Origin: Afipia sp.
GTDB taxonomy: Bacteria; Pseudomonadota; Alphaproteobacteria; Rhizobiales; Xanthobacteraceae
Assembly (NCBI GenBank): GCA_017308595.1
Contig: JAFKER010000014.1
Location: forward strand, 15,062-79,061
Reading direction: 5' to 3'
DNA length: 64,000 bases
Shown in pieces: positions 25,925 to 58,564 of the stretch. The notes under the pieces are model-generated. The model was given only the letters and a program-made list of their open reading frames with translations, was not told the origin of the DNA and did not search any database. A program made the translations under genes and the position numbers. Positions within the stretch are counted from its first letter, which is position 1, and every line of letters starts with the position of its first letter.

Positions 25925-28900
25925 ATGCGCATCGAACGCCGCTACACCAAAGCCGATCAGTCACCCTACGCCGCGATCGATTTCAGACTGACGACAAGCG
26001 AGATCCGCAATCCCGACGGCTCGGTGGTGTTCCGCCTTGAGAACGTGGAAGTGCCGGAGTTCTGGTCGCAGGTCGCCTCCGACGTTCTGGCGCAGAAGTA
26101 TTTCCGCAAGGCGGGCGTCGCCTCGCGCCTGAAGAAGGTCGAGGAAGAAACCGTCCCCTCGTGGCTGTGGCGCTCGGTGCCGGATACCGAAGCTCTCGCC
26201 CTGCTCCCCGAATCCGAGCGGATCGGCGGCGAGCATTCCGCCAAGCAGGTGTTCGACCGCCTTGCCGGCTGCTGGACCTATTGGGGCTGGAAGGGCTCGT
26301 ACTTCTCCTCGGAAGAAGACGCCAAAGCGTTCTACGACGAACTGCGCTTCATGCTCGCCAAGCAGATGGTCGCGCCGAACTCGCCGCAGTGGTTCAACAC
26401 CGGACTGCACTGGGCTTACGGCGTCGATGGTCCCGGCCAGGGCCACTACTACGTGGACTGGAAGACCGGAAAGCTGACCAAATCCAAATCGTCCTACGAA
26501 CATCCGCAGCCGCACGCCTGCTTCATTCAGGGCGTGGACGACGACCTCGTCAACGAAGGCGGCATCATGGACCTGTGGGTGCGCGAAGCGCGCCTGTTCA
26601 AATACGGCTCGGGCACCGGCTCCAACTTCTCGCGCCTGCGCGGCGAAGGCGAAAAGCTTTCGGGCGGCGGCCGCTCAAGCGGCCTGATGAGCTTCCTCAA
26701 GATCGGCGACCGCGCTGCGGGCGCGATCAAGTCGGGCGGCACCACGCGCCGCGCGGCCAAGATGGTCGTGGTCGACGCCGATCATCCGGACATCGAGACC
26801 TATATCGACTGGAAGGTGAAGGAGGAGCAGAAGGTCGCCGCGCTCGTCACCGGCTCCAAGATCAACCAGAAGCACCTCAAGGCCATCATGAAGGCCTGCG
26901 TGAACTGCGAAGGTTCAGGCGACGACTGCTTCGATCCCGAGAAGAACCCGGCGCTGCGCCGCGAAATCAAGCTGGCCCGCCGCGCGCTGGTGCAGGACAA
27001 CCTGATCAAGCGCGTGATGCAGTTCGCCAAGCAGGGCTACAAGGACATCTCGTTCGACACCTATGACACCGATTGGGATTCGGAAGCCTACCTGACCGTT
27101 GCGGGCCAGAACTCGAACAACTCGGTCTCGCTGAAGGATGATTTCCTGCGCGCGGTGGAAACCGACGGCGACTGGAATCTGATCGGCCGCACCAACAAGA
27201 AGGTGACGAAGACCATCAAGGCCCGCGACCTGTGGGAGAAGATCGGTTACGCCGCGTGGGCGAGCGCCGATCCCGGCCTGCACTACAACACCACCATGAA
27301 CGACTGGCACACTTGTAAAGCCAGCGGCGACATCCGCGCGTCCAATCCGTGCTCGGAATACATGTTCCTCGACGACACGGCGTGCAACCTCGCCTCCGCC
27401 AACCTCTTGACCTTCTACGATACGCAGACCCGCCGCTTCGACGTCGAAGCCTACGAGCATCTCTGCCGCCTGTGGACGGTCGTGCTCGAAATCTCGGTGA
27501 TGATGGCGCAGTTCCCGTCGAAGGCGATCGCCGAACTCTCCTACGAATTCCGCACGCTGGGCCTCGGCTATGCCAACATCGGCGGCCTGCTGATGACCAT
27601 GGGTCTATCCTACGACTCGAAGGAAGGCCGCGCGCTCTGCGGCGCGCTGACCGCCGTCATGACCGGCACGAGCTACGCCACCTCGGCTGAAATGGCGAAG
27701 GAGCTTGGCCCCTTCCCCGGCTACAAGAAGAACGCCGCGCACATGCTGCGCGTGATCCGCAACCATCGCCGCGCCGCGCACGGCGAAGCGACGGGCTATG
27801 AAGCGCTCGCCGTCAATCCGGTGCCGCTCGATCACGCAAGCTGCCCGCAGGGCGACATCGTGACCCGCGCCAAGGCGATCTGGGATGCGGCGCTCGACCT
27901 CGGCCAGCAGCACGGCTACCGCAACGCGCAGACCACGGTGGTCGCGCCGACCGGCACCATCGGCCTCGTGATGGACTGCGACACCACGGGCATCGAGCCG
28001 GACTTCGCGCTGGTGAAATTCAAGAAGCTCGCTGGCGGCGGCTACTGGAAGATCATCAACCGCGCAGTCCCCGAAGCGCTGCGCGCCCTCGGCTATCCCG
28101 AAAGCGAGATCGCCGAGATCGAAGCCTACGCTGTCGGTCACGGCTCGCTCGGTCAGGCGCCGGGCATCAACCGCTCGACCCTGAAGGCCAAGGGCTTCAC
28201 CGATGAAGCCCTCGACAAGATCGAGAAGCAGCTGCCGACCGCCTTCGACATCAAGTTCGCCTTCAACAAGTGGACGCTGGGCGAAGACTTCCTGCGCGAT
28301 ACGCTCAAGATCGATCCGGAAGCGTCCAACGCGCCGGGCTTCGACCTGCTCGCCGCGCTCGGCTTCACCAAGCGCGAGATCGAAGCCGCCAACGTGCACA
28401 TCTGCGGCGCGATGACGGTGGAAGGCGCGCCGCACCTCAAGGCCGAACACTACAGCGTGTTCGACTGCGCCAATCCCTGCGGCAAGATCGGCAAGCGTTA
28501 CCTGTCGGTGGAAAGCCACATCCGCATGATGGCGGCCTCGCAGCCCTTCATCTCGGGTGCGATCTCCAAGACCATCAACATGCCGAACGACGCCACGGTG
28601 GAGGACTGCAAGTCCGCTTACCTGCTGTCGTGGAAACTCGCGCTCAAGGCCAACGCGCTCTATCGCGACGGCTCGAAGCTCAGCCAGCCGCTGAATGCAC
28701 AGCTCATCAGCGACGATGACGAAGACGAAGACGTGATCGAGGCGTTCCACGACAAGCCGATGGCGGCACGCACCGCCCAGGTGTCGGAGAAGATCGTCGA
28801 GAAGCTGGTCGAGCGTATCGTGGTGATGCGCGAGCGCGAGAAGATGCCGGATCGCCGCAAGGGCTACACCCAGAAGGCCGTGGTCGGCGGGCACAAGGTT

Positions 28901-29677
28901 TATCTCCGCACCGGCGAATACGATGACGGCCGCATCGGCGAAATCTTCATCGACATGCACAAGGAAGGCGCGGCGCTGCGCTCCTTCGTCAACAACTTCG
29001 CCATCTCCGTCTCGCTGGGTCTCCAGTACGGCGTGCCGCTGGAAGAATATGTCGACGCCTTCACCTTCACCCGCTTCGAGCCCGCAGGCCCCGTGCAGGG
29101 CAACGACTCGATCAAGTTCGCGACCTCGATCCTCGACTACGTGTTCCGCGAACTGGCCGTGAGCTACATGGGCCGCTTCGATCTCGGACATGTCGATCCG
29201 AGCGACATGGGCTTCGACGCGCTCGGCAAGGGCGTCGAAGAAGGCAAGGCGCCCGAAGCCCACGGCGCAACCAAGTATCTGTCGAAGGGCCTCACCCGCT
29301 CACGCACGGATAATCTGGTGGTGATGCGCGGCGGCGCTGCGGCCATCACGGCGAACGACGACAGCGCGCCTGCGGGCGGCGCGAAGGTGACGGCGCTCTC
29401 GGGCGCACATGTGGGCGACAGTGTGGACGGCGCGGTGGCCCTCAAAGTGGCCGAGCCCGAGCGCGATCTCTCGCCGACGGAAAAGCTGGAAGCGCAAGCG
29501 TGGAGCAAAGCGGGCTCAGCGGCACAGGCCGCGCCATCCAAGGCCGAGCGCCGCGCCGAAGCAAAAGCCCGCGGCTACGAGGGCGACATGTGCACGGAGT
29601 GCAGCAACTTCACGCTGGTGCGGAACGGCACGTGCATGAAGTGCGATACGTGTGGCAGCACGACGGGGTGTTCGTGA
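25925..29677 (+). CDS. nrdJ: Vitamin B12-dependent class II ribonucleotide reductase with TSCPD domain and C-terminal zinc ribbon
   Basis: [35 protein letters not shown]; ISKTINMP; YRDGSK; C-terminal CTECSN...CDTCG. Confidence 0.96.
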
Positions 29678-29695
29678 GGCATTAAAGAAACAGCT

Positions 29696-29725
29696 AAATG
29701 GCCGCCCTTTTGAGCGGCCATTTTT
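29696..29725 (+). terminator. nrdJ intrinsic terminator
   Basis: aaatggccgc...gcggccattttt, 18 bp after the nrdJ stop. Confidence 0.8.
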
Positions 29726-29774
29726 GCTTATTCAAAAAGATGGGGAAAAGCTGACACGGACCCGCTTGCAGAAC

Positions 29775-29789
29775 GAACAAAGCATGATC
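29775..29789 (+). promoter_or_regulatory. Possible alphaproteobacterial LexA (SOS) box
   Basis: GAAC-aaagcat-GATC, one mismatch to GAAC-N7-GAAC, in the AT-rich promoter region of the island. Confidence 0.4.
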
Positions 29790-29837
29790 GAGGTATATCC
29801 TAAAATGAGGCAGAACTGATTCGTTCGGCCTGAAATA

Positions 29838-29980
29838 CCAATGCCGAGGCGAACCTCGGCATTGGAACCCGCGAAGCACTGTTGAGGTACTTACGGGGGC
29901 ATCGAGAAAGCAGACGCTTCCTCTCAGTGGCATGAGCAGTTAAGCGATTCTGCAGTCCGGCGTCCAGCGGAGCCTCAACG
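29838..29980. ncRNA. Putative structured RNA or leader upstream of the CBASS operon
   Basis: Perfect 12-bp hairpin ccaatgccgagg-cgaa-cctcggcattgg (29838-29865). A long-range stem gttgagg(29881-29887)/cctcaac(29973-29979) encloses three short hairpins. Folded by eye; no known family recognised. Confidence 0.4.
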
Positions 29981-30018
29981 TTTTCCAACGCCTAATACGC
30001 GTAGATGGAGCACGTCTG

Positions 30019-30222
30019 ATGCCAAAGTATACCCGCAACTCCGGGAACGAATGGAACCCCTCTGAGGTCAAACAACTTCGACGAGAAGCCAGTCAAAATA
30101 CGCCAACGCGTGTTATTGGCCTGCATCTCGGGCGCACCGAGAATGCGGTTCGCAATCGAGCTTGCCAAGAGGGCATCTCTCTGAAGCCGACCAACCAATC
30201 TCCCTACAATCGCAAGAAGTAA
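30019..30222 (+). CDS. Small basic HTH-like protein (Myb/GcrA-N-like pattern), first gene of the CBASS operon
   Basis: RBS ggag at 30007-30010; W-x4-V-x2-L...IGLHLGRTENAVRNRA pattern; 13 nt to the next ATG, which has its own RBS. Confidence 0.75.
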   Translation: MPKYTRNSGNEWNPSEVKQLRREASQNTPTRVIGLHLGRTENAVRNRACQEGISLKPTNQSPYNRKK

Positions 30223-30235
30223 CCGGGAGACCGAC

Positions 30236-31123
30236 ATGGTATGGAATGGCGTAACAGCCCGCTTCAAGCAGTTCGACACAAATTTAAGGCTGACTAACGA
30301 CCAAATATCTGACGGAACAACAAAACACAAAGGCATAACAAAATGCCTCAACACCAATTACTACGAGATGTCGTCCGAAACCAGCAACTCGATGCTAGTC
30401 GGATCATGGGGCAAGCAAACGCGCATGCGCCCTCCTCGAGATATTGATCTGCTATATGAACTGCCTACCAGCGTTTACCATCGCTTTGAAAAATATATCG
30501 GCAACAAGCAGTCCGCACTACTTCAAGAAATAAAGGGCGTATTGGAAAAAACATACCCCAGCACGGCAATGCGTGCCGACGGACAGGTAATAATCGTCCG
30601 GTTTAATACAATTAACGTCGAAGTCGTCCCCGCATTTCCGCTGACGAATGGTCAGTACTGGATATGCGACACGAACAACGGCAGAAAATACAAAGAATTC
30701 GACGCCGTTGCCGAAATAGAAAATATGAAAAAAGCCAACAACGAGACAAATGGCAACGCAAGATTTCTTACGAAGTTTATGAAGGCCTGGCAGCGCGAGT
30801 GTAGCGTTCCGATAAAGTCCTTTTGGATTGAATTGCTAGCAATCGATTTCTTGTCGAGTTGGCCATACAAGCAAAGTAGCCCGTTTTATCATGACTGGAT
30901 GACGCGTGACTTTCTAAAATATCTGTGCGGCAAGAAAAACTCGCATATCGTCGTGCCTGGGACTTACGAATATATCGGACTAGGTGACGATTGGTTTAGC
31001 CGAGCCGAGACAGCGCACAATCGCGCTGTGAAGGCGGAGCAATACGAATACAGAGATGAAATCCAAGCTGCAGGTGAGGAATGGCAGAAGATATTCGGCT
31101 CACAGATTCCGATCCACGTGTGA
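30236..31123 (+). CDS. SMODS/cGAS-DncV-like nucleotidyltransferase (CD-NTase)
   Basis: Pol-beta NTase motif VGSWGKQTRMRPPRDIDLL (hGS...DxD); third acidic residue in VEVVPAF; KAWQRE and KSFWIELL C-lobe motifs; EEWQKIFG end; 295 aa; low GC. Confidence 0.9.
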   Translation: MVWNGVTARFKQFDTNLRLTNDQISDGTTKHKGITKCLNTNYYEMSSETSNSMLVGSWGKQTRMRPPRDIDLLYELPTSVYHRFEKYIGNKQSALLQEIKGVLEKTYPSTAMRADGQVIIVRFNTINVEVVPAFPLTNGQYWICDTNNGRKYKEFDAVAEIENMKKANNETNGNARFLTKFMKAWQRECSVPIKSFWIELLAIDFLSSWPYKQSSPFYHDWMTRDFLKYLCGKKNSHIVVPGTYEYIGLGDDWFSRAETAHNRAVKAEQYEYRDEIQAAGEEWQKIFGSQIPIHV

Positions 31124-31644
31124 TGGAATTACGTCGCGCGGAAATCATCAAGGAATGCCTGAGGCAATCTGAATCCTGTCTTTATACATCAACTATGCTC
31201 TTCGCTTGGTTGCGCCGTGTTCGAATTCAAAGGCAATTGTTCGTTGCGCTGCCCATATTACTCGGGGGCCTCGCGGGCGTCACCGTTCTGAAGAATGCTT
31301 GGCCAGATTGGGTAATTGCTGTGCTAGCCCTTGGAGCAAGCCTATTTCCGGCACTGGCTGATGCGCTAAAAATACAGACAAGCGTGGATGAACTAGCTAG
31401 GGCTGCGGCAGAGTATAAGGTCTTACAAGATCGCTTTCGTATCAACGCTAATCTTACTTCGCTGCAAGATGTGGACGAAGCTCAGCGAGTGTTGAGCGAT
31501 CTAATGGATCGGATGGATATAGTACGAAGCACGTCTTTGACACCTCCCGAGAAATACTTCAGCGAGGCGCAACGAAAGATAGATCAGGGACACTATGATT
31601 TCGATGTTGACGACGGTCCATCGAGAAAGAACGAACCAGAGTAG
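31123..31644 (+). CDS. SLATT-family 2TM effector (CBASS membrane effector)
   Basis: TGATG overlap with the CD-NTase stop; two hydrophobic helices (LFVALPILLGGLAGVTVL; WVIAVLALGASLFPALA), then a helical tail ending AQRKIDQGHYDFD, resembling SLATT_5/6. Confidence 0.8.
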   Translation: MELRRAEIIKECLRQSESCLYTSTMLFAWLRRVRIQRQLFVALPILLGGLAGVTVLKNAWPDWVIAVLALGASLFPALADALKIQTSVDELARAAAEYKVLQDRFRINANLTSLQDVDEAQRVLSDLMDRMDIVRSTSLTPPEKYFSEAQRKIDQGHYDFDVDDGPSRKNEPE

Positions 31645-31720
31645 CGCGGATATTGCGTAGCGAAATCTGGGAACGACTGTGTTGCGCACTCCCGCATTGC
31701 GCTTCGCTCCATTGGGCTAG
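31641..31720. repeat. Degenerate GTAG-family REP palindrome
   Basis: Left arm gtagcgcggatattgcgtagcgaaatctggga, right arm tcccgcattgcgcttcgctccattgggcta; the GTAG overlaps the SLATT stop codon. Confidence 0.65.
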
Positions 31721-31823
31721 AGCGTTTCGGTCACCCCAATCACTCAAGCTCTCGTGACCTTGCCTCCTACTCTCCCCATCCCCATCTAGAGCGGACCGGC
31801 CCACGCACGAGTCCCCCGCCTCC

Positions 31824-32846
31824 ATGAAGAAAATCGGCTTTCTGTCCTTCGGCCACTGGTCGCCGTCGTCCCATTCGCAGACACGCTCGGCCTCGGACAC
31901 ACTCCTGCAATCCATCGATCTTGCTGTCGCCGCCGAAGAGCTTGGCGCGGACGGCGCGTATTTCCGCGTGCATCATTTCGCGCGCCAGCTCGCCTCGCCC
32001 TTTCCGCTGCTCGCTGCTGTCGGCGCGAGGACCAGCAGGATCGAGATCGGCACCGCCGTGATCGACATGCGCTACGAGAACCCGCTCTACATGGCGGAGG
32101 ACGCGGGCGCGGCCGATCTCATCTCGGGCGGGCGTTTGCAACTCGGCATCAGCCGCGGTTCGCCCGAACAGGTGATCGAGGGCTGGCGCTATTTCGGCTA
32201 TCAGCCCGCTGAGGGCGAGACCGACGCCGACATGGGACGCCGCCACGGCGAGGTGTTCTACGACATCATTCGCGGCAAGGGTTTCGCGCAGCCGAACCCG
32301 CGCCCGATGTTTCCCAATCCGCCCGGACTTCTCCGGCTTGAGCCGCATTCCGAAGGCCTGCGCGACCGCATCTGGTGGGGCGCGGCCTCAAACGCGACCG
32401 CGCAGTGGGCGGGCAAGCTCGGCATGAACCTGCAAAGCTCAACATTGAAGAAGAACGAGACCAACGAGCCGTTTCACGTCCAGCAGGCGAAACAAATTCG
32501 CCTCTACCGCGACGCCTACAAGGACGCGGGCCACACGCGCCCGCCGCGCGTCTCGGTGAGCCGCAGCATCTTCGCGCTGATGGACGACCGCGACCGCGAC
32601 TTTTTCGGCAACGGCAACGAGGACAGCGATCAGGTCGGGTTCATCGACGCCGACATGCAGGCGATCTTCGGGCGCGGCTATACGGCGGAGCCGGACAAGC
32701 TGATCGACCTGTTGAAGGCGGACGAAGGCATCGCCGAGGCCGATACGCTGTTGCTGACGGTGCCCAATCAGTTGGGCGTCGATTACAATGCTCATGTCAT
32801 TGAATCGATCCTGAAGCATGTCGCTCCGGCGCTCGGCTGGCGCTGA
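31824..32846 (+). CDS. LLM-class (luciferase-like) flavin-dependent oxidoreductase
   Basis: MKKIGFLSFGHW, FRVHHFA, RIEIGTAVIDMRYENP, GRLQLGISRGS. Confidence 0.92.
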   Translation: MKKIGFLSFGHWSPSSHSQTRSASDTLLQSIDLAVAAEELGADGAYFRVHHFARQLASPFPLLAAVGARTSRIEIGTAVIDMRYENPLYMAEDAGAADLISGGRLQLGISRGSPEQVIEGWRYFGYQPAEGETDADMGRRHGEVFYDIIRGKGFAQPNPRPMFPNPPGLLRLEPHSEGLRDRIWWGAASNATAQWAGKLGMNLQSSTLKKNETNEPFHVQQAKQIRLYRDAYKDAGHTRPPRVSVSRSIFALMDDRDRDFFGNGNEDSDQVGFIDADMQAIFGRGYTAEPDKLIDLLKADEGIAEADTLLLTVPNQLGVDYNAHVIESILKHVAPALGWR

Positions 32847-53337: not shown

Positions 53338-54177
53338 TTAGAATCGATAGTTCGCGCCAAAACGGACCACGTTGAAATGGAGGTCCGAAAAATGCGCATT
53401 AAACGAGGTGGGAGGATTTGCTCCCAAGGGACGCGCGAACACTGTCGTATCGCTGCTGCCGAGGTTTACGTACAGATATTCAACCTTGAACGTCACATTG
53501 CTCCACGCGGCGTATTCCAAGCCGCCACCGGCCGTGTAACCGACGAGGACCTTCGAAGAACCACCGGTGAAGCAGCCGACCGGAAACGTAATACAATCGT
53601 GGCTGGACCCACCGCCCGCACCCGCAGATGCCGCGGCCGTCGTCATGCTCACCGAGAGATTTTCTTTAACCGACCCGTAAGCCAAGCCGCCGGTGCCATA
53701 AATCAGCAGTTTATCGTTTGCAAGCCAGCCCGCGCGAGCGCGCAATGTTCCAAACCACTCAACCTTTTGCTCGCTCGAGATTGCTGCAGGATCGATCCAG
53801 GCGAAATTTGCCACGCTCGAATTCTTGATCCCGCTTCCCTGGAAATCCGCTTCAACGCCAATGAGCCAGTTCGGTGCGGCCTGATAATTGTAGCCGATCT
53901 GGCCACCGCCGAGCACGCCGGCAACATCATAAGCAAACTGTTGCGATGCCGGCATCCGGGCCGCGGCGTGCGCATCGTTCGGTGTGGATGTGACCGTCGG
54001 ATCGCTAAAACCGTAGCCGATGTTTACGCCCGCATAAAAACCGGTCCAGTTTGCGACAGCGACGGCTGGTGCCTTGGTGTAAACGGGCCGCGCCGCAATG
54101 TCAGCAGATTGCGCAGATGAACTGGCCGCCAACAAAACAGCCGAAATCAGAATTGTCTTTTTCAAATTCGCCCCCAT
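53338..54177 (-). CDS. Outer-membrane beta-barrel protein (Omp25/RopB-like)
   Basis: Signal peptide, ADIAARPVYTKAP, WTGFYAG, GGGQIGYN, GTLRARAG, C-terminal GANYRF. Confidence 0.9.
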   Translation of the reverse strand: MGANLKKTILISAVLLAASSSAQSADIAARPVYTKAPAVAVANWTGFYAGVNIGYGFSDPTVTSTPNDAHAAARMPASQQFAYDVAGVLGGGQIGYNYQAAPNWLIGVEADFQGSGIKNSSVANFAWIDPAAISSEQKVEWFGTLRARAGWLANDKLLIYGTGGLAYGSVKENLSVSMTTAAASAGAGGGSSHDCITFPVGCFTGGSSKVLVGYTAGGGLEYAAWSNVTFKVEYLYVNLGSSDTTVFARPLGANPPTSFNAHFSDLHFNVVRFGANYRF

Positions 54178-54302
54178 CAAAACGGGAATCAAAAAAATAT
54201 AAAATCTGGTTCTATTATACCTGAGAACCGCCGCCGCCGTATTGCACCGCTGCAACATCCAAAAGTTTATCGACGAAGACGGATGGCAAACGAAGGTTCC
54301 CT

Positions 54303-54701
54303 TCAGAGCACCAGTTGGGTCTGGGTCACGACCGCCACCAGCTTGCCCTCTTCCGTTTCCAGCCGGGTCTGCCAGACCTGCGTCCGCCGCCCAAGATGGA
54401 CCGGGGTCGCCGTGGCCGTAACGGTCGCGCCTGCCTTGGCACCGCCGACAAAGTTGGTCTTGCTTTCGATGGTGGTGGTTCCCTTGGCGTCCGGCGGCAG
54501 GTTGATCACGGTCGCCGCCGCGCCGACGGAATCGGCGAAGGCCATCACCGCGCCGCCATGGATCGTGTGGCCAAGGGTGCAGAGGTCTTCCCGGACTACC
54601 ATGGTCGCCACCACCTTGTCCGGCTCGGCCTGCGTGAAAGTCACTCCCATCAGAACAGCGAGCGGCATCGGCCGTGACTGGATCTTTTCAAGCAGGCTCA
54701 A
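54303..54701 (-). CDS. PaaI-family hotdog thioesterase
   Basis: HGGAVMAFADS, TTIESKTNF, HLGRRTQVW; TTG start after ggagg. Confidence 0.92.
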   Translation of the reverse strand: MSLLEKIQSRPMPLAVLMGVTFTQAEPDKVVATMVVREDLCTLGHTIHGGAVMAFADSVGAAATVINLPPDAKGTTTIESKTNFVGGAKAGATVTATATPVHLGRRTQVWQTRLETEEGKLVAVVTQTQLVL

Positions 54702-54783
54702 GCGGCCCCTCCATCTGTTAAAGCGATACACGAAGCTGCTGCCGGAGGCGCGAGCCAGTTAAAGTAACGGATGAAGTCCAATT

Positions 54784-56076
54784 TCATGCCGCGTCCACGC
54801 CGCACCAGTTCGCCACGAACAGCGCGATGGCGCGCGTCGTTTTGCGCAGGGATTCGATCTCCACGCGTTCATTGAAACCGTGCATCGCCTCGGCATTGGC
54901 CCCGAAGCAGAGGCTCGGGATACCGGCGTTGAGACCATAGAACCGGGTATCGGTCAGCGCGGTAAACGCCAGTTCCTTCATCGGCCCGCCATAGACAGTC
55001 TCATAGGCCGAGCGCAGCACGGCTTCGGAGTCCTCTGCCCCCGTCAGTTCATAGCCCTCGGACAGAAAGCCGGACCACTCAACGACCGGCGGGTTCTTCG
55101 CCAGAAACGGATGCTGTTTCGCTGCGGCTTCGACACAGGCGACGATCTCGGCCTGATGATCGGGAATCGACCAGCCCGGCAGCACCGCGATACGGCAATC
55201 GAGATCGCACCACGCTGGAACCGACGACGCCCAGTCGCCCCCCTTGATGATGCCGGGATTGAAATTGATGGGATGCTTCACGACCTTGAAGTGCCTGTCG
55301 CTCGCAGCCCGCCGGTTCCAGTCCTCCTCCAGCCCTTCAAGCGCCTGAACGAGGTGATAGGCCGCCTTGATCGCATTGGCCCCTGCTCCCGCCTCGAACA
55401 CATGCACCGGCTTGCCGCGCACCTTGAGGCGAAACCAGATCACGCCGACCTGCGAGCGCACCAGCTTGCCGTTGGTCGGCTCCGGGATGAAACAGCAGTC
55501 GGCGCGATAGCCGCGCTGCACCGTGGAGAGCGCGCCGACGCCGGTGCTCTCCTCTTCGATGACGGACTGAAAGTGAATCCGCGCTGTCGGCTTCAACCCC
55601 GCCGCACGTAACGCATCGAGCGCATAAAGCGCAGCGATGGTGCCGGACTTCATGTCGCCCGCGCCGCGACCATAGAGCCAGCCATCCCTCACCGTCGGCG
55701 AGAATGGCGGTGTATCCCACATGTCGAGCGGGCCGGCCGGCACCACATCGCAGTGCCCTTGCAGGATCAGCGAACGGCCCGCCTCACGCACCGGACGATA
55801 TGTGCCGACCACGCTGCGCGCGCGGGAGAAATCATGCTCGATCGGGCCGAAGCCGCGCAGGTCTTTCAGGTCATCGACATTGATGCGCCAGTCATCCACC
55901 TCAAAGCCGCGCTCGCGCAGCAGATCATGCATCATGTCCTGACACGGGCCTTCCGCGCCACGGGTCGAGGGAATGGCCGAGAACTGCTTCGTGGTCTCGA
56001 TCTGCCGGTCGAAGGCATCGTCCACCGCATCGAGAATGCGGCGCTGGACCTCGTTCGAGGTGGCTTTGGCGTCCAT
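54784..56076 (-). CDS. ArgE/DapE-family (M20) deacylase
   Basis: GHCDVVP, GRGAGDMKSG, VIEEES, HGFNE. Confidence 0.92.
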   Translation of the reverse strand: MDAKATSNEVQRRILDAVDDAFDRQIETTKQFSAIPSTRGAEGPCQDMMHDLLRERGFEVDDWRINVDDLKDLRGFGPIEHDFSRARSVVGTYRPVREAGRSLILQGHCDVVPAGPLDMWDTPPFSPTVRDGWLYGRGAGDMKSGTIAALYALDALRAAGLKPTARIHFQSVIEEESTGVGALSTVQRGYRADCCFIPEPTNGKLVRSQVGVIWFRLKVRGKPVHVFEAGAGANAIKAAYHLVQALEGLEEDWNRRAASDRHFKVVKHPINFNPGIIKGGDWASSVPAWCDLDCRIAVLPGWSIPDHQAEIVACVEAAAKQHPFLAKNPPVVEWSGFLSEGYELTGAEDSEAVLRSAYETVYGGPMKELAFTALTDTRFYGLNAGIPSLCFGANAEAMHGFNERVEIESLRKTTRAIALFVANWCGVDAA

Positions 56077-56325
56077 CGCGTTCCATCCCTTCATGCCCGC
56101 GTCTGCCGCGCGGATTGCGGGCGTGAGTGTAGCCAGTTTTACGGGACTGTTGGAAGTGAAGCGATGACCCCGGAGGTAAACGGCGAGGTCCGGGCCGCAC
56201 GAGAACCGGAGAAGATTCCGAGACTGCCAGTCTGGTTGAACCTTATGTCGCGAAGCAACCACTCATGGTAGCAGCCGATACAGGGGTCCAAGCGGATCGA
56301 TCCCGCTCCAGCCAAGTGTTACACA

Positions 56326-56973
56326 ATGCCCATGACGTCCGATCGATTTCAATACTCAGCCCTTGCGCTGATGCTGCTGGCGATAGTGCTCGCCTGGTAC
56401 AAGGGACGGCGCGCCGTTTCTGCGGACGGACGGTCGCTCGCCTGGACTTACGTTCCCCTGATTGCTTTTTTGACGGTCTCTCTCGGCCCGAGCGTGGTCG
56501 CTACGTTTCTCTATCTCGGCACCAAATCCGGTCTGCTGCAGGCCGCACCATCCGGCGTTCGATTTTCATCGTTCATTTTTCAGCTCCCGCTTGATTTCGC
56601 GGTCATGAACTGGGGATTTGTTGCCCTGTATGTGGTTTGCCGGCTGTATCCGAATTTTCGATCGGCGCGGTCTGCGATGTGGGTTTCCACAATCGTGATG
56701 TGTGTTTTGAACGTGCCGCTGTTCTTCCTGGCACCCGACATGATCTCCAACGTCTTCGATGCGGGCCAGGGCATCGGCATTATTCAGGCCATACTCAGCA
56801 TGCCGCTCTGGTTCGGTTCATACCCCGGTTTTCTTGATCCCAGTTCAGGCATTGGCCGTCTTGTCTTCGCGCCGCTCGCACCCATTCCGTTATCTGGCTT
56901 GATTGTCTGGATCGCTGCACAACTCATCGGAGGCTCCGCCGGTTCTCCGAGACGGAAAACCGCGCGGCCGTAA
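56326..56973 (+). CDS. Uncharacterised multi-pass membrane protein
   Basis: About 5-6 hydrophobic segments; no family recognised. Confidence 0.6.
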   Translation: MPMTSDRFQYSALALMLLAIVLAWYKGRRAVSADGRSLAWTYVPLIAFLTVSLGPSVVATFLYLGTKSGLLQAAPSGVRFSSFIFQLPLDFAVMNWGFVALYVVCRLYPNFRSARSAMWVSTIVMCVLNVPLFFLAPDMISNVFDAGQGIGIIQAILSMPLWFGSYPGFLDPSSGIGRLVFAPLAPIPLSGLIVWIAAQLIGGSAGSPRRKTARP

Positions 56974-57060
56974 GGCACCGGAGGCACCAGCCGTCTCCGG
57001 TAAGAAAGATATTTCCCAAGTCGTCAGATCCCATGCGACGACCGGAGCGTGGCGGACGGA

Positions 57061-57669
57061 TCAATACCCGACCGTGAACCGCTGCTTGGTGTGCGCGGGC
57101 TTCTCCACCTCATCCGCAAGTGCGATCGCATAATCCGCGAACGAGATGCTGCTGCCCTTCTCATTGCTCAGCAGTTGATCTTTGCCGAGGCGGAATGTGC
57201 CGGTGCGCGGCCCGTCGAAGAACAGTGCCGACGGTGAGAGGAACGTCCAGTCCAAAGCCTTTTCCTGACGCAGCAGCGCAAGGAAATCGCCGCCCTTGAA
57301 TGCTTCCGCCTTGTATTCGGCGGGAAAGCCAGGCGTCGTGACCAGCGCAACGCCGGGCGCGACCTCGAGACTGCCCGCGCCGCCAACCACCAGATAACGC
57401 GTCACGCCCGCCGCCTTCACGGCGTCGATGAGAATCTGCGGATCGCTTGCGGTGAAATGCACAGCGCTGACGACAGCGTCATGCCCCTTCAGCAATTCTG
57501 TCAGTCCGGCTTTATCGAACACGTCGCCTTTCTTCGCGGTGACGTTGGCGCCCGCAGGCACCTTCTCCGGATTGCGGACGATGGCAGTGACGTGATGGCC
57601 GCGGCGAACCAGTTCCTTCAGAATTTCCGAACCTGCGCGGCCGGTGGCTCCGATCAGTGCGATATTCAT
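57061..57669 (-). CDS. NAD(P)-binding oxidoreductase (NAD(P)H-binding/YwnB-like)
   Basis: IALIGATGRAG, VVGGAGSL, WTFLSP, ISFADYA. Confidence 0.92.
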   Translation of the reverse strand: MNIALIGATGRAGSEILKELVRRGHHVTAIVRNPEKVPAGANVTAKKGDVFDKAGLTELLKGHDAVVSAVHFTASDPQILIDAVKAAGVTRYLVVGGAGSLEVAPGVALVTTPGFPAEYKAEAFKGGDFLALLRQEKALDWTFLSPSALFFDGPRTGTFRLGKDQLLSNEKGSSISFADYAIALADEVEKPAHTKQRFTVGY

Positions 57670-57691
57670 GATTTGCGTCCTTTGCGCGATA

Positions 57692-57710
57692 TGGTATCAA
57701 ATGGATACCA
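57692..57710. promoter_or_regulatory. Candidate operator of the HxlR regulator
   Basis: Perfect dyad tggtatc-aaatg-gatacca between the divergent oxidoreductase and regulator. Confidence 0.55.
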
Positions 57711-57729
57711 ACTAACCAATGGACATCAG

Positions 57730-58200
57730 ATGCCCACAAGCAACGCCGTTGTGAAGAAGGCACTTTCCCGAGACATGGTTCCTTCGGAGAAACCCAAAGC
57801 CGCCCGGGCATCGAAGGCTGCGCGCGGGAACTGGCCCGCCAATCCCTATGCGGAAGATTGCCCGACACGGCTGGTGCTCGACCGCATCGCCGACAAATGG
57901 ACCGTGCTGCTGCTCATTCTTCTTTCGCGCCGTCCGTGGCGCTTCAACGAACTGCGCCGCGAGATCGGCGGGCTGACACAGAAGATGGCCTCACAGACTT
58001 TAAAGGGGCTCGAGCGCGACGGCCTTGTCACGCGCAAGGTGACGCCGACGGTTCCGGTCACTGTCGAGTATTCGATCACGCCGCTTGGCCGCACACTCAG
58101 TGAGACGGTCGATGCGCTGCGCATGTGGGCCGAGCGGCACATGGGTGATGTCGCCAAGGCCCAGTCGCAATATGACCGGACCAAGGCAACAACTGTGTAG
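57730..58200 (+). CDS. HxlR-family winged-helix regulator
   Basis: CPTRLVLDRIADKWT, RFNELRR, LKGLERDGLV, VEYSITPLG. Confidence 0.92.
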   Translation: MPTSNAVVKKALSRDMVPSEKPKAARASKAARGNWPANPYAEDCPTRLVLDRIADKWTVLLLILLSRRPWRFNELRREIGGLTQKMASQTLKGLERDGLVTRKVTPTVPVTVEYSITPLGRTLSETVDALRMWAERHMGDVAKAQSQYDRTKATTV

Positions 58201-58372
58201 ATTAGGTCACACACACGAGCTTTGTGCGGATGTTCTTCGTGCGTTCGCAACAGTTGATGAGGTGTTTTAGGCTTGCGCGCTAGGATGGCGCATCATCGGC
58301 GACGGTCTAGAGAGTTTACGATGACATCTCGCCGGCGATGAGAATGAGCTCCCAAACTCAAGGAGAGCAATC

Positions 58373-58564
58373 ATGCCAGCCTATGCGCAGCATCACCCGA
58401 GGCGTCAGATTTTCCACGCAGCGATGACCGTGTGTCCAAGCTGCCTGAGCCTGCCCATGCAGATCAGAGAGGTTCATCCCCATTGGGATCTGGCGCGGGT
58501 CGACTTCGTTTATGAATGCCCGGCCTGCTGCACCGAAGTCCGGGAAACCGTCGCGAAGCACTGA
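58373..58564 (+). CDS. Small zinc-ribbon protein
   Basis: RBS aggag; CPSC...CPAC; similar to 40129..40446. Confidence 0.7.
   Translation: MPAYAQHHPRRQIFHAAMTVCPSCLSLPMQIREVHPHWDLARVDFVYECPACCTEVRETVAKH

Follow-up and report, generated by a model that had tools for sequence, protein, structure and literature searches.

A probable type I CBASS operon carried as horizontally acquired cargo in a variable defense hotspot at the 3′ end of nrdJ in Afipia

Introduction

Type I operons of CBASS, the antiphage signaling system based on cyclic oligonucleotides, that pair a cGAS/DncV-like nucleotidyltransferase (CD-NTase) with a SLATT protein have been described in Escherichia coli, where the EcCdnF04-SLATT6 and EcCdnF05-SLATT6 operons protect against phages (Richmond-Buccola et al., bioRxiv 10.1101/2023.05.21.541620). 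For signal sensing by SLATT effectors, the one proposal in print is that they oligomerize upon signal binding, with predicted positively charged cytoplasmic pockets between protomers (bioRxiv 10.64898/2025.12.03.692087). Panoptes systems combine mCpol, a minimal Cas10-like cyclase, with an effector of the 2TM-beta or CARF-TM kind and use inverted signaling (PMC13580996). Here, we describe a CD-NTase gene and an adjoining gene for a two-transmembrane (2TM) protein in a 64,000-nt stretch of an Afipia sp. genome (assembly GCA_017308595.1, contig JAFKER010000014.1), referred to as the window; coordinates are positions within it unless a locus or contig is named. The two genes lie in a low-G+C islet (29678 to 31644) that starts directly after the stop codon of nrdJ. 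We conclude, at a probability of about 0.9, that the locus is a type I CBASS abortive-infection system, horizontally acquired as cargo in a variable defense hotspot at the nrdJ 3′ end.

Results

The first gene of the pair encodes a 295-aa synthase, as the initial annotation of this DNA had stated, and the SMODS domain expected there was recovered with Pfam (E value of 3.8e-39). The protein also matches the PADLOC cyclase model PDLC00814 (6.3e-134, model positions 1 to 294 of 295) and NCBIfam CBASS_cyclase_b (2.2e-27), and its AlphaFold2 model has a CD-NTase fold with a predicted local distance difference test (pLDDT) score of 95.5. Judged from sequence, the active site is intact and conserved. 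We take the GS...DID...E set (G56-S57, D69-I70-D71, and E129) to be real because G56, S57, D69, D71, and E129 are invariant in an alignment of the 38 family members, comprising the synthase and 37 homologues from other genomes. An AGS-C domain is lacking, and the C terminus reads ...SQIPIHV with no terminal Gly, as the translation had indicated before. The second gene matches the PADLOC CBASS "Effector 2TM" model PDLC00706 (1.1e-67), so that PADLOC, a tool proposed for checking the pair, matched both proteins.

Relatives of the synthase were sought in a scan of one genome per species, which returned 52 loci at 40 to 70% identity from Pseudomonadota, Acidobacteriota, Nitrospira, Verrucomicrobiota, Planctomycetota, and Gemmatimonadota. 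In 50 of these 52 loci, the gene directly 3′ of the synthase relative encodes a relative of the effector, and one locus has no effector match. In Rhizobium terricola (L069, 4001 to 6399), about 1 kb separates the two genes, which suggests an insertion between them. The only other recurrent neighbors, a fused helix-turn-helix (HTH)-M78 peptidase (CapH/CapP-like, RmrA-like) and a PIN-like gene, occur at 12 to 13 of the 52 loci and are absent from the window. Within the window, tblastn was used to look for an M78 peptidase remnant in the stretch that separates nrdJ from the small gene heading the islet; the nrdJ 3′ end was all that it matched. CapH/CapP-regulated CBASS was considered and set aside, as the window holds no M78 peptidase.

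No Cap2/Cap3, HORMA/Trip13, or Cap6-8 genes were found in the islet, which holds only three open reading frames (ORFs), all on the same strand (a 67-aa gene, the synthase, and the effector), between nrdJ and a monooxygenase gene; the initial annotation had likewise listed no Cap2/Cap3 or HORMA/Trip13 genes. The type I assignment holds because these genes are missing and because the synthase ends in ...IHV and not in Gly. Together, the domain and model matches and the conserved pairing uphold the type I CBASS of a SMODS/CD-NTase and a SLATT-type 2TM protein that had been proposed. The description of the unit as minimal was accurate for the lack of ancillary Cap genes; it overlooked a leader and an HTH-like 67-aa gene just upstream, with no terminator between that gene and the synthase.

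The islet is foreign, horizontally acquired DNA, because its G+C content differs from that of its flanks and because relatives carry other cargo at the same nrdJ site. The G+C fraction is 0.465 in the synthase gene, 0.492 in the effector gene, and 0.490 over the whole islet, compared with 0.639 in nrdJ, 0.641 in the monooxygenase gene, and 0.609 in the entire window, so the AT richness remarked on earlier (0.49 versus 0.64) is real. Several independent metagenome studies of bioreactors, wastewater, and sediment contain near-identical DNA; there was no transcriptome sequencing (RNA-seq) run among the sequencing runs listed with this DNA.

The same genome carries a second, unrelated CBASS (G000 contig C14, about 54100 to 58400; L225, 1659 to 5913), whose genes encode a divergent CapP peptidase, a PDC-S16-like small protein, a CapV phospholipase effector, a 399-aa cyclase, and an E2 protein.

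In related genomes, a variable defense hotspot occupies the 3′ end of nrdJ: both flanks are conserved there, and the DNA between them is not. Eight same-genus genomes (loci L011 to L018) carry differing low-G+C cargo at the same place after nrdJ, namely, an AriAB-like ATPase (G001), a ThsB-type TIR protein (G015), PDC-S31 (G019), a Schlafen/AlbA_2 protein (G005), a DUF4062 protein (G002), a MauJ-like protein (G017), a pentapeptide-repeat protein (G018), and two unknown proteins (G024). About 90 nt at the right end of the islet finds matches of 72 to 77% in G024, G001, G002, and L019 (the locus of the closest relative), directly 3′ of their own cargo, and we place the right edge there because this segment recurs behind other cargo in relatives. 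When the right-edge 120 nt were searched as a genome-wide repeat, they proved to be single copy in the genome, and a search of the window for flanking direct repeats or a tRNA as marks of integration found none. Copies of the last 50 to 130 nt of nrdJ occur inside the hotspot, upstream of the leader, in L019 (3314 to 3367) and in a Nitrobacter locus (L075, 4537 to 4686). These duplicated gene ends suggest site-specific insertions that regenerate the end of nrdJ.

The features of the islet and its flanks are listed in Table 1. Both flanking genes are core genes. The nrdJ DNA is 79 to 91% identical to the genes of relatives, and its homologue at locus L072 contains the domains Ribonuc_red_2_N, Ribonuc_red_lgC, and TSCPD. 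The monooxygenase ORF is 89% identical at the DNA level in four same-genus genomes, its PDB matches are alkanal monooxygenase/luciferase entries (best E value of 1.9e-16), and a PADLOC search with it gave no match. Terminator-like sites were looked for on the + strand between the three islet ORFs, and none were found; an Rfam scan of 29400 to 31900 returned terminator-like noise only.

Table 1. Features of the islet and its flanks, with positions in the window
Feature	Position	Strand	Basis or remark
nrdJ, class II (B12-dependent) ribonucleotide reductase, left flank	25925..29677	+	1250-aa ORF
Bidirectional intrinsic-terminator hairpin 3′ of nrdJ, left islet edge	29696..29723	both	10- to 12-bp G+C-rich stem plus T run on either strand
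Structured leader, ~200 nt, upstream of the 67-aa gene	29817..30018	+	Conserved in 16 loci
67-aa Myb/GcrA-like small gene, operon head	30019..30222	+	Ends 13 nt before synthase ATG
CD-NTase (CBASS cyclase), 295 aa	30236..31123	+	Pfam SMODS, PADLOC PDLC00814, fold
SLATT_4-like 2TM effector, 187 or 173 aa	31081 (or 31123)..31644	+	PADLOC PDLC00706, NCBIfam SLATT_4
Right islet edge, ~90 nt	31641..31732		Common to relatives with other cargo here
Luciferase-like (LLM) flavin monooxygenase, right flank	31824..32846	+	PDB matches, DNA identity

Clade G, which the initial annotation had inferred for the synthase from its motif style, is rejected. A profile of the synthase family matched PaCdnD best among PDB entries (6p82, E value of 1.5e-23, full length), followed in order by BcCdnD (B. 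cereus), EcCdnC (E. coli), SeCdnD (S. enterica), and EcCdnD (E. cloacae), where entry identities were taken from PMC13424991 and Foldseek titles; all of these leaders belong to clade D or C. Foldseek also ranked PaCdnD first (template modeling [TM] score of 0.79 to 0.80, 23 to 24% identity) and placed the CdnG structure 8hsb 37th (TM score of 0.67, 16% identity). Nearer to the synthase by sequence than any solved enzyme is a nucleotidyltransferase of an E. coli IncX1 plasmid (NZ_AP027974.1, L226), its closest enterobacterial relative, which is 28% identical over the whole synthase (E value of 4e-34), shares Glu as the third catalytic residue, and is followed by a SLATT gene. At 442 aa, with a C-terminal extension, the plasmid enzyme fits the description of the AGS-C-fused clade F04/05 enzymes, which are paired with SLATT6; it probably belongs to clade F and may be the published CdnF04/05. 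When all complete E. coli genomes were searched at the DNA level, no match emerged. It is safe to say that the synthase lies outside clade G, resembles clade D or clade F enzymes, and lacks an AGS-C domain. The plasmid is conjugative, its nucleotidyltransferase-SLATT pair adjoins two HEPN-domain genes and DinQ-like type I toxins, and similar nucleotidyltransferases are common on Klebsiella, Salmonella, and Escherichia plasmids.

The effector is SLATT_4-like. NCBIfam SLATT_4 matches at an E value of 2.6e-13, and matches were also obtained with RTasSLATT, the PADLOC model of the SLATT protein from DRT (defense-associated reverse transcriptase) systems (1.3e-09), and with NCBIfam SLATT_1 (0.0069). 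The closest ESM Atlas clusters carry SLATT_4, and homologues are named "SLATT domain-containing protein" in RefSeq and have no precomputed Pfam domain. The two membrane-spanning segments reported before are present, at residues 38 to 56 and 64 to 82 of the 173-aa form, with a short outer loop between them. Because basic residues precede the first segment, the N-terminal helix and the C-terminal helical part of about 90 residues should both be cytoplasmic under the positive-inside rule. Seven residues are invariant in the family (E11, Y21, R106, P142, F146, K152, and Y158), and all of them lie in the cytoplasmic helices. The AlphaFold2 model (pLDDT score of 89.4) is all-alpha, with no beta domain, and the protein contains no SAVED or CARF domain. 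Foldseek of the model against the PDB returned only nonspecific helical bundles (best E value of 0.18), and searching the PDB by sequence yielded no meaningful match.

Two starts are possible for the effector. The initial annotation had recognized the TGATG junction at 31121 to 31125, where the synthase stop codon TGA overlaps the ATG at 31123 by one base and opens a 173-aa frame; the junction is as described, but it is only one of the candidates. An in-frame ATG at 31081 would give a 187-aa product with a 43-nt overlap with the synthase gene. This upstream ATG sits in the codons for an invariant Glu-Glu-Trp of the synthase, which is why an ATG or GTG is present at this position in every homologue. 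Seven loci, including L019, have no ATG, GTG, or TTG at the junction, and the upstream start must therefore serve there; in one other homologue, a stop codon lies between the two candidates, and the junction start must therefore be used. Gene callers chose the upstream start for the recorded 187-aa form in the protein collection, and the Prokaryotic Genome Annotation Pipeline (PGAP) did so for a homologue on a Mesorhizobium plasmid (46-nt overlap). Either start couples translation of the synthase and the effector.

The invariant C-terminal sequence of the synthase, Ala-Gly-Glu-Glu-Trp-Gln-Lys-Ile-Phe, overlaps the alternative effector start and its purine-rich upstream bases (31081 to 31123). 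Given this overlap, the strong conservation of the synthase C terminus may reflect dual coding.

The operon head consists of the leader and the 67-aa gene. The leader hairpins covary across the 16 loci (CG in 9 and UA in 7 for pair 73/94; CG in 7 and UA in 6 for pair 105/127), no Rfam family matched at an E value of ≤1, and the leader is the probable 5′ untranslated region of the operon. The 67-aa ORF is a real gene, with more than 5000 homologues that are 70 to 90% identical across phyla and occur in Rhodopseudomonas, Nitrobacter, Afipia, Bdellovibrionota, Acidobacteriota, and candidate phyla; it is present in 33 of 201 genomes sampled from the family of the host. A PDB search with the protein gave nothing. 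Transcription of the operon probably starts at the promoter of this leader and HTH-like gene.

Elsewhere, the small gene keeps varied company. It stands after nrdJ and before an AbiTii gene in Rhodopseudomonas and one further genome of the host's family, after nrdJ and a CapP-like M78 peptidase gene in Nitrobacter, and after a type II CBASS and before an unknown gene in a Bdellovibrionaceae genome. In metagenome loci, the genes directly behind it include those for ThsB, ThsA, a Cap15-type effector, SLATT_1/3 and DUF4231 proteins, putAbiC, a type III methylase, DUF2130, and an AAA_16 ATPase, and a DUF4238 gene is also among the defense genes directly 3′ of its homologues. Among the 52 related CBASS loci, the small gene was found at L019 only, at the same nrdJ site, where it is 84% identical and the synthase is 70% identical. 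Because of this single carrier and the unrelated defense genes behind the small gene elsewhere, we conclude that the head does not belong to the CBASS; it may still drive or control the expression of any cargo that comes behind it.

Discussion

The assignment of the locus to type I CBASS has several observations weighing against it. On the NCBIfam CBASS cyclase equivalog models, the synthase falls far short of the cutoffs (96 against 200 bits). The SLATT_4 match of the effector, at 50.1 bits, is below the cutoff of 55 bits, and all Pfam SLATT models, including the SLATT_5/6 that the initial annotation had expected, gave no match at an E value of ≤1. The effector resembles no solved structure, so a ligand site cannot be read from one. 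In vitro nucleotide synthesis had not been seen with any CD-NTase of clade F, and the chemistry of the synthase is uncertain if it is near clade F. Finally, we infer the synthase product, the phage trigger, and ligand binding by the effector alike.

A rival explanation is that the module is not autonomous and that the locus is a three-gene unit in which the 67-aa Myb/GcrA-like protein and the leader regulate transcription of the CBASS. The small gene lies on the same strand close before the synthase with no intervening terminator, L019 repeats the arrangement, the hairpins of the leader covary, and in two other genomes the small gene is preceded by a CapP-like M78 peptidase, which recalls CapH/CapP control. 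However, the small gene is missing at 51 of the 52 related synthase-effector loci and precedes many unrelated defense genes and so is not CBASS specific, no peptidase remnant exists in the window, and both DNA binding and regulation by the 67-aa protein are putative. We therefore regard a dedicated three-gene unit as doubtful.

A wider reading builds on the type I CBASS assignment, and we put it forward tentatively, as a possibility that we judge to fall well short of even odds. The synthase-effector pair would be one of many interchangeable defense cargos expressed from a conserved head, the uncatalogued leader of about 200 nt plus the 67-aa protein, at a site-specific hotspot at the nrdJ 3′ end. 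The head would be a new and widespread regulator of defense cassettes, and the SLATT_4-type effector would itself bind a cyclic oligonucleotide in pockets between its protomers, dispensing with a dedicated sensor domain.

At this locus we find an intact enzyme, a conserved pairing, a two-segment membrane topology, and foreign origin; the steps that would lead from these to defense are drawn from membership in the CBASS class. The synthase would stay off until a phage cue appears, and the cues of tested type I CBASS appear to be capsid or prohead assembly proteins or a phage RNA. Once activated, it would make a cyclic di- or trinucleotide from nucleoside triphosphates; a trinucleotide is a reasonable guess, because PaCdnD, the nearest solved relative, makes cyclic tri-AMP. 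The signal would be bound by the effector's cytoplasmic helices, probably where pockets form between protomers, with the invariant R106, K152, Y158, Y21, and E11 as candidate contact residues. Binding would cause the effector to oligomerize and breach the inner membrane, and the cell would die or arrest before phage progeny are released.

The same parts could in principle work with the inverted logic of Panoptes, in which a constant low signal holds the effector off and phage sponges or nucleases that remove cyclic nucleotides release it. Panoptes also joins a minimal cyclase to a small transmembrane effector without a classical sensor domain, the effector here has neither SAVED nor CARF, no synthase regulator is visible in the type I operon, and the genome has its CapV/E2-type CBASS on another contig. 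However, Panoptes cyclases are of the mCpol type with a Cas10 palm, and their effectors are Cap15-like 2TM-beta or CARF-TM proteins, whereas here a SMODS CD-NTase is paired with an all-alpha, SLATT-like effector. Tested CD-NTase-SLATT operons act as ordinary type I CBASS, and the sequence holds no sign of constitutive synthase activity. We consider inverted signaling very unlikely at this locus, and membership in Panoptes was rejected, as the enzyme is a SMODS/CD-NTase and the effector is without a beta domain. Least credible of all is a decayed or nondefensive relic, with genes in frame but inactive or serving as an addiction module that stabilizes the islet: the islet encodes no recombinase and seems fixed in place, and no known activator of a type I synthase is encoded nearby, but both ORFs are full length against the family models, every invariant family residue is retained, and near-identical DNA recurs in independent metagenome studies.

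The type I CBASS described here adds little to the CBASS catalog, as PADLOC already has models that match both proteins over nearly their entire length, and defense of E. coli by CD-NTase-SLATT operons has been demonstrated before. The synthase is a compact enzyme whose subfamily falls between clade D and clade F, the latter biochemically silent. It lacks both an AGS-C domain and a relative that has been solved or assayed and is therefore a clean candidate for product identification. The effector, with no structural homologue in the PDB, bears on how helical 2TM proteins read nucleotide signals. The locus is also a clear example of a chromosomal defense hotspot, with a conserved leader and small HTH gene before swappable cargo, and this head of interchangeable defense cargo is its more unusual element.

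Compared with known systems, the pair resembles EcCdnF04/05-SLATT6 in layout: two genes make up the operon, that of a small membrane protein of the SLATT family comes directly behind that of the CD-NTase, and ancillary Cap genes are absent. The E. coli enzymes, however, have a C-terminal Ig-like AGS-C domain (442 aa), whereas the synthase here is without it, and its effector is SLATT_4-like rather than SLATT6 and is unrelated in sequence to the SLATT protein of the E. coli plasmid pair (E value of 0.58). With PaCdnD (PDB 6P82, 6P8J, and 6P8U), a clade D enzyme of type III CBASS, the synthase shares a compact size of about 300 aa. Unlike in PaCdnD, the third catalytic residue is Glu rather than Asp, and the HORMA/Trip13 and NucC nuclease partners of PaCdnD have no genes in the islet. 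Cap15 and Panoptes systems likewise use a minimal cyclase and a two-helix, membrane-disrupting effector, but Cap15-type effectors bind their signal in a beta-barrel, whereas the effector here is entirely helical, and Panoptes differs in its mCpol cyclase and inverted logic from the SMODS enzyme found here. The closest parallel for sensing is ThsH of type VII Thoeris, likened here by its description. It is also a small SLATT membrane protein that answers a nucleotide signal without a classical sensor domain, as the effector here is predicted to do, although the Thoeris signal is cyclic ADP-ribose from a TIR protein and not a CD-NTase product. By this analogy, the ThsH pocket model is the best one at present for how the Afipia effector could sense its ligand.

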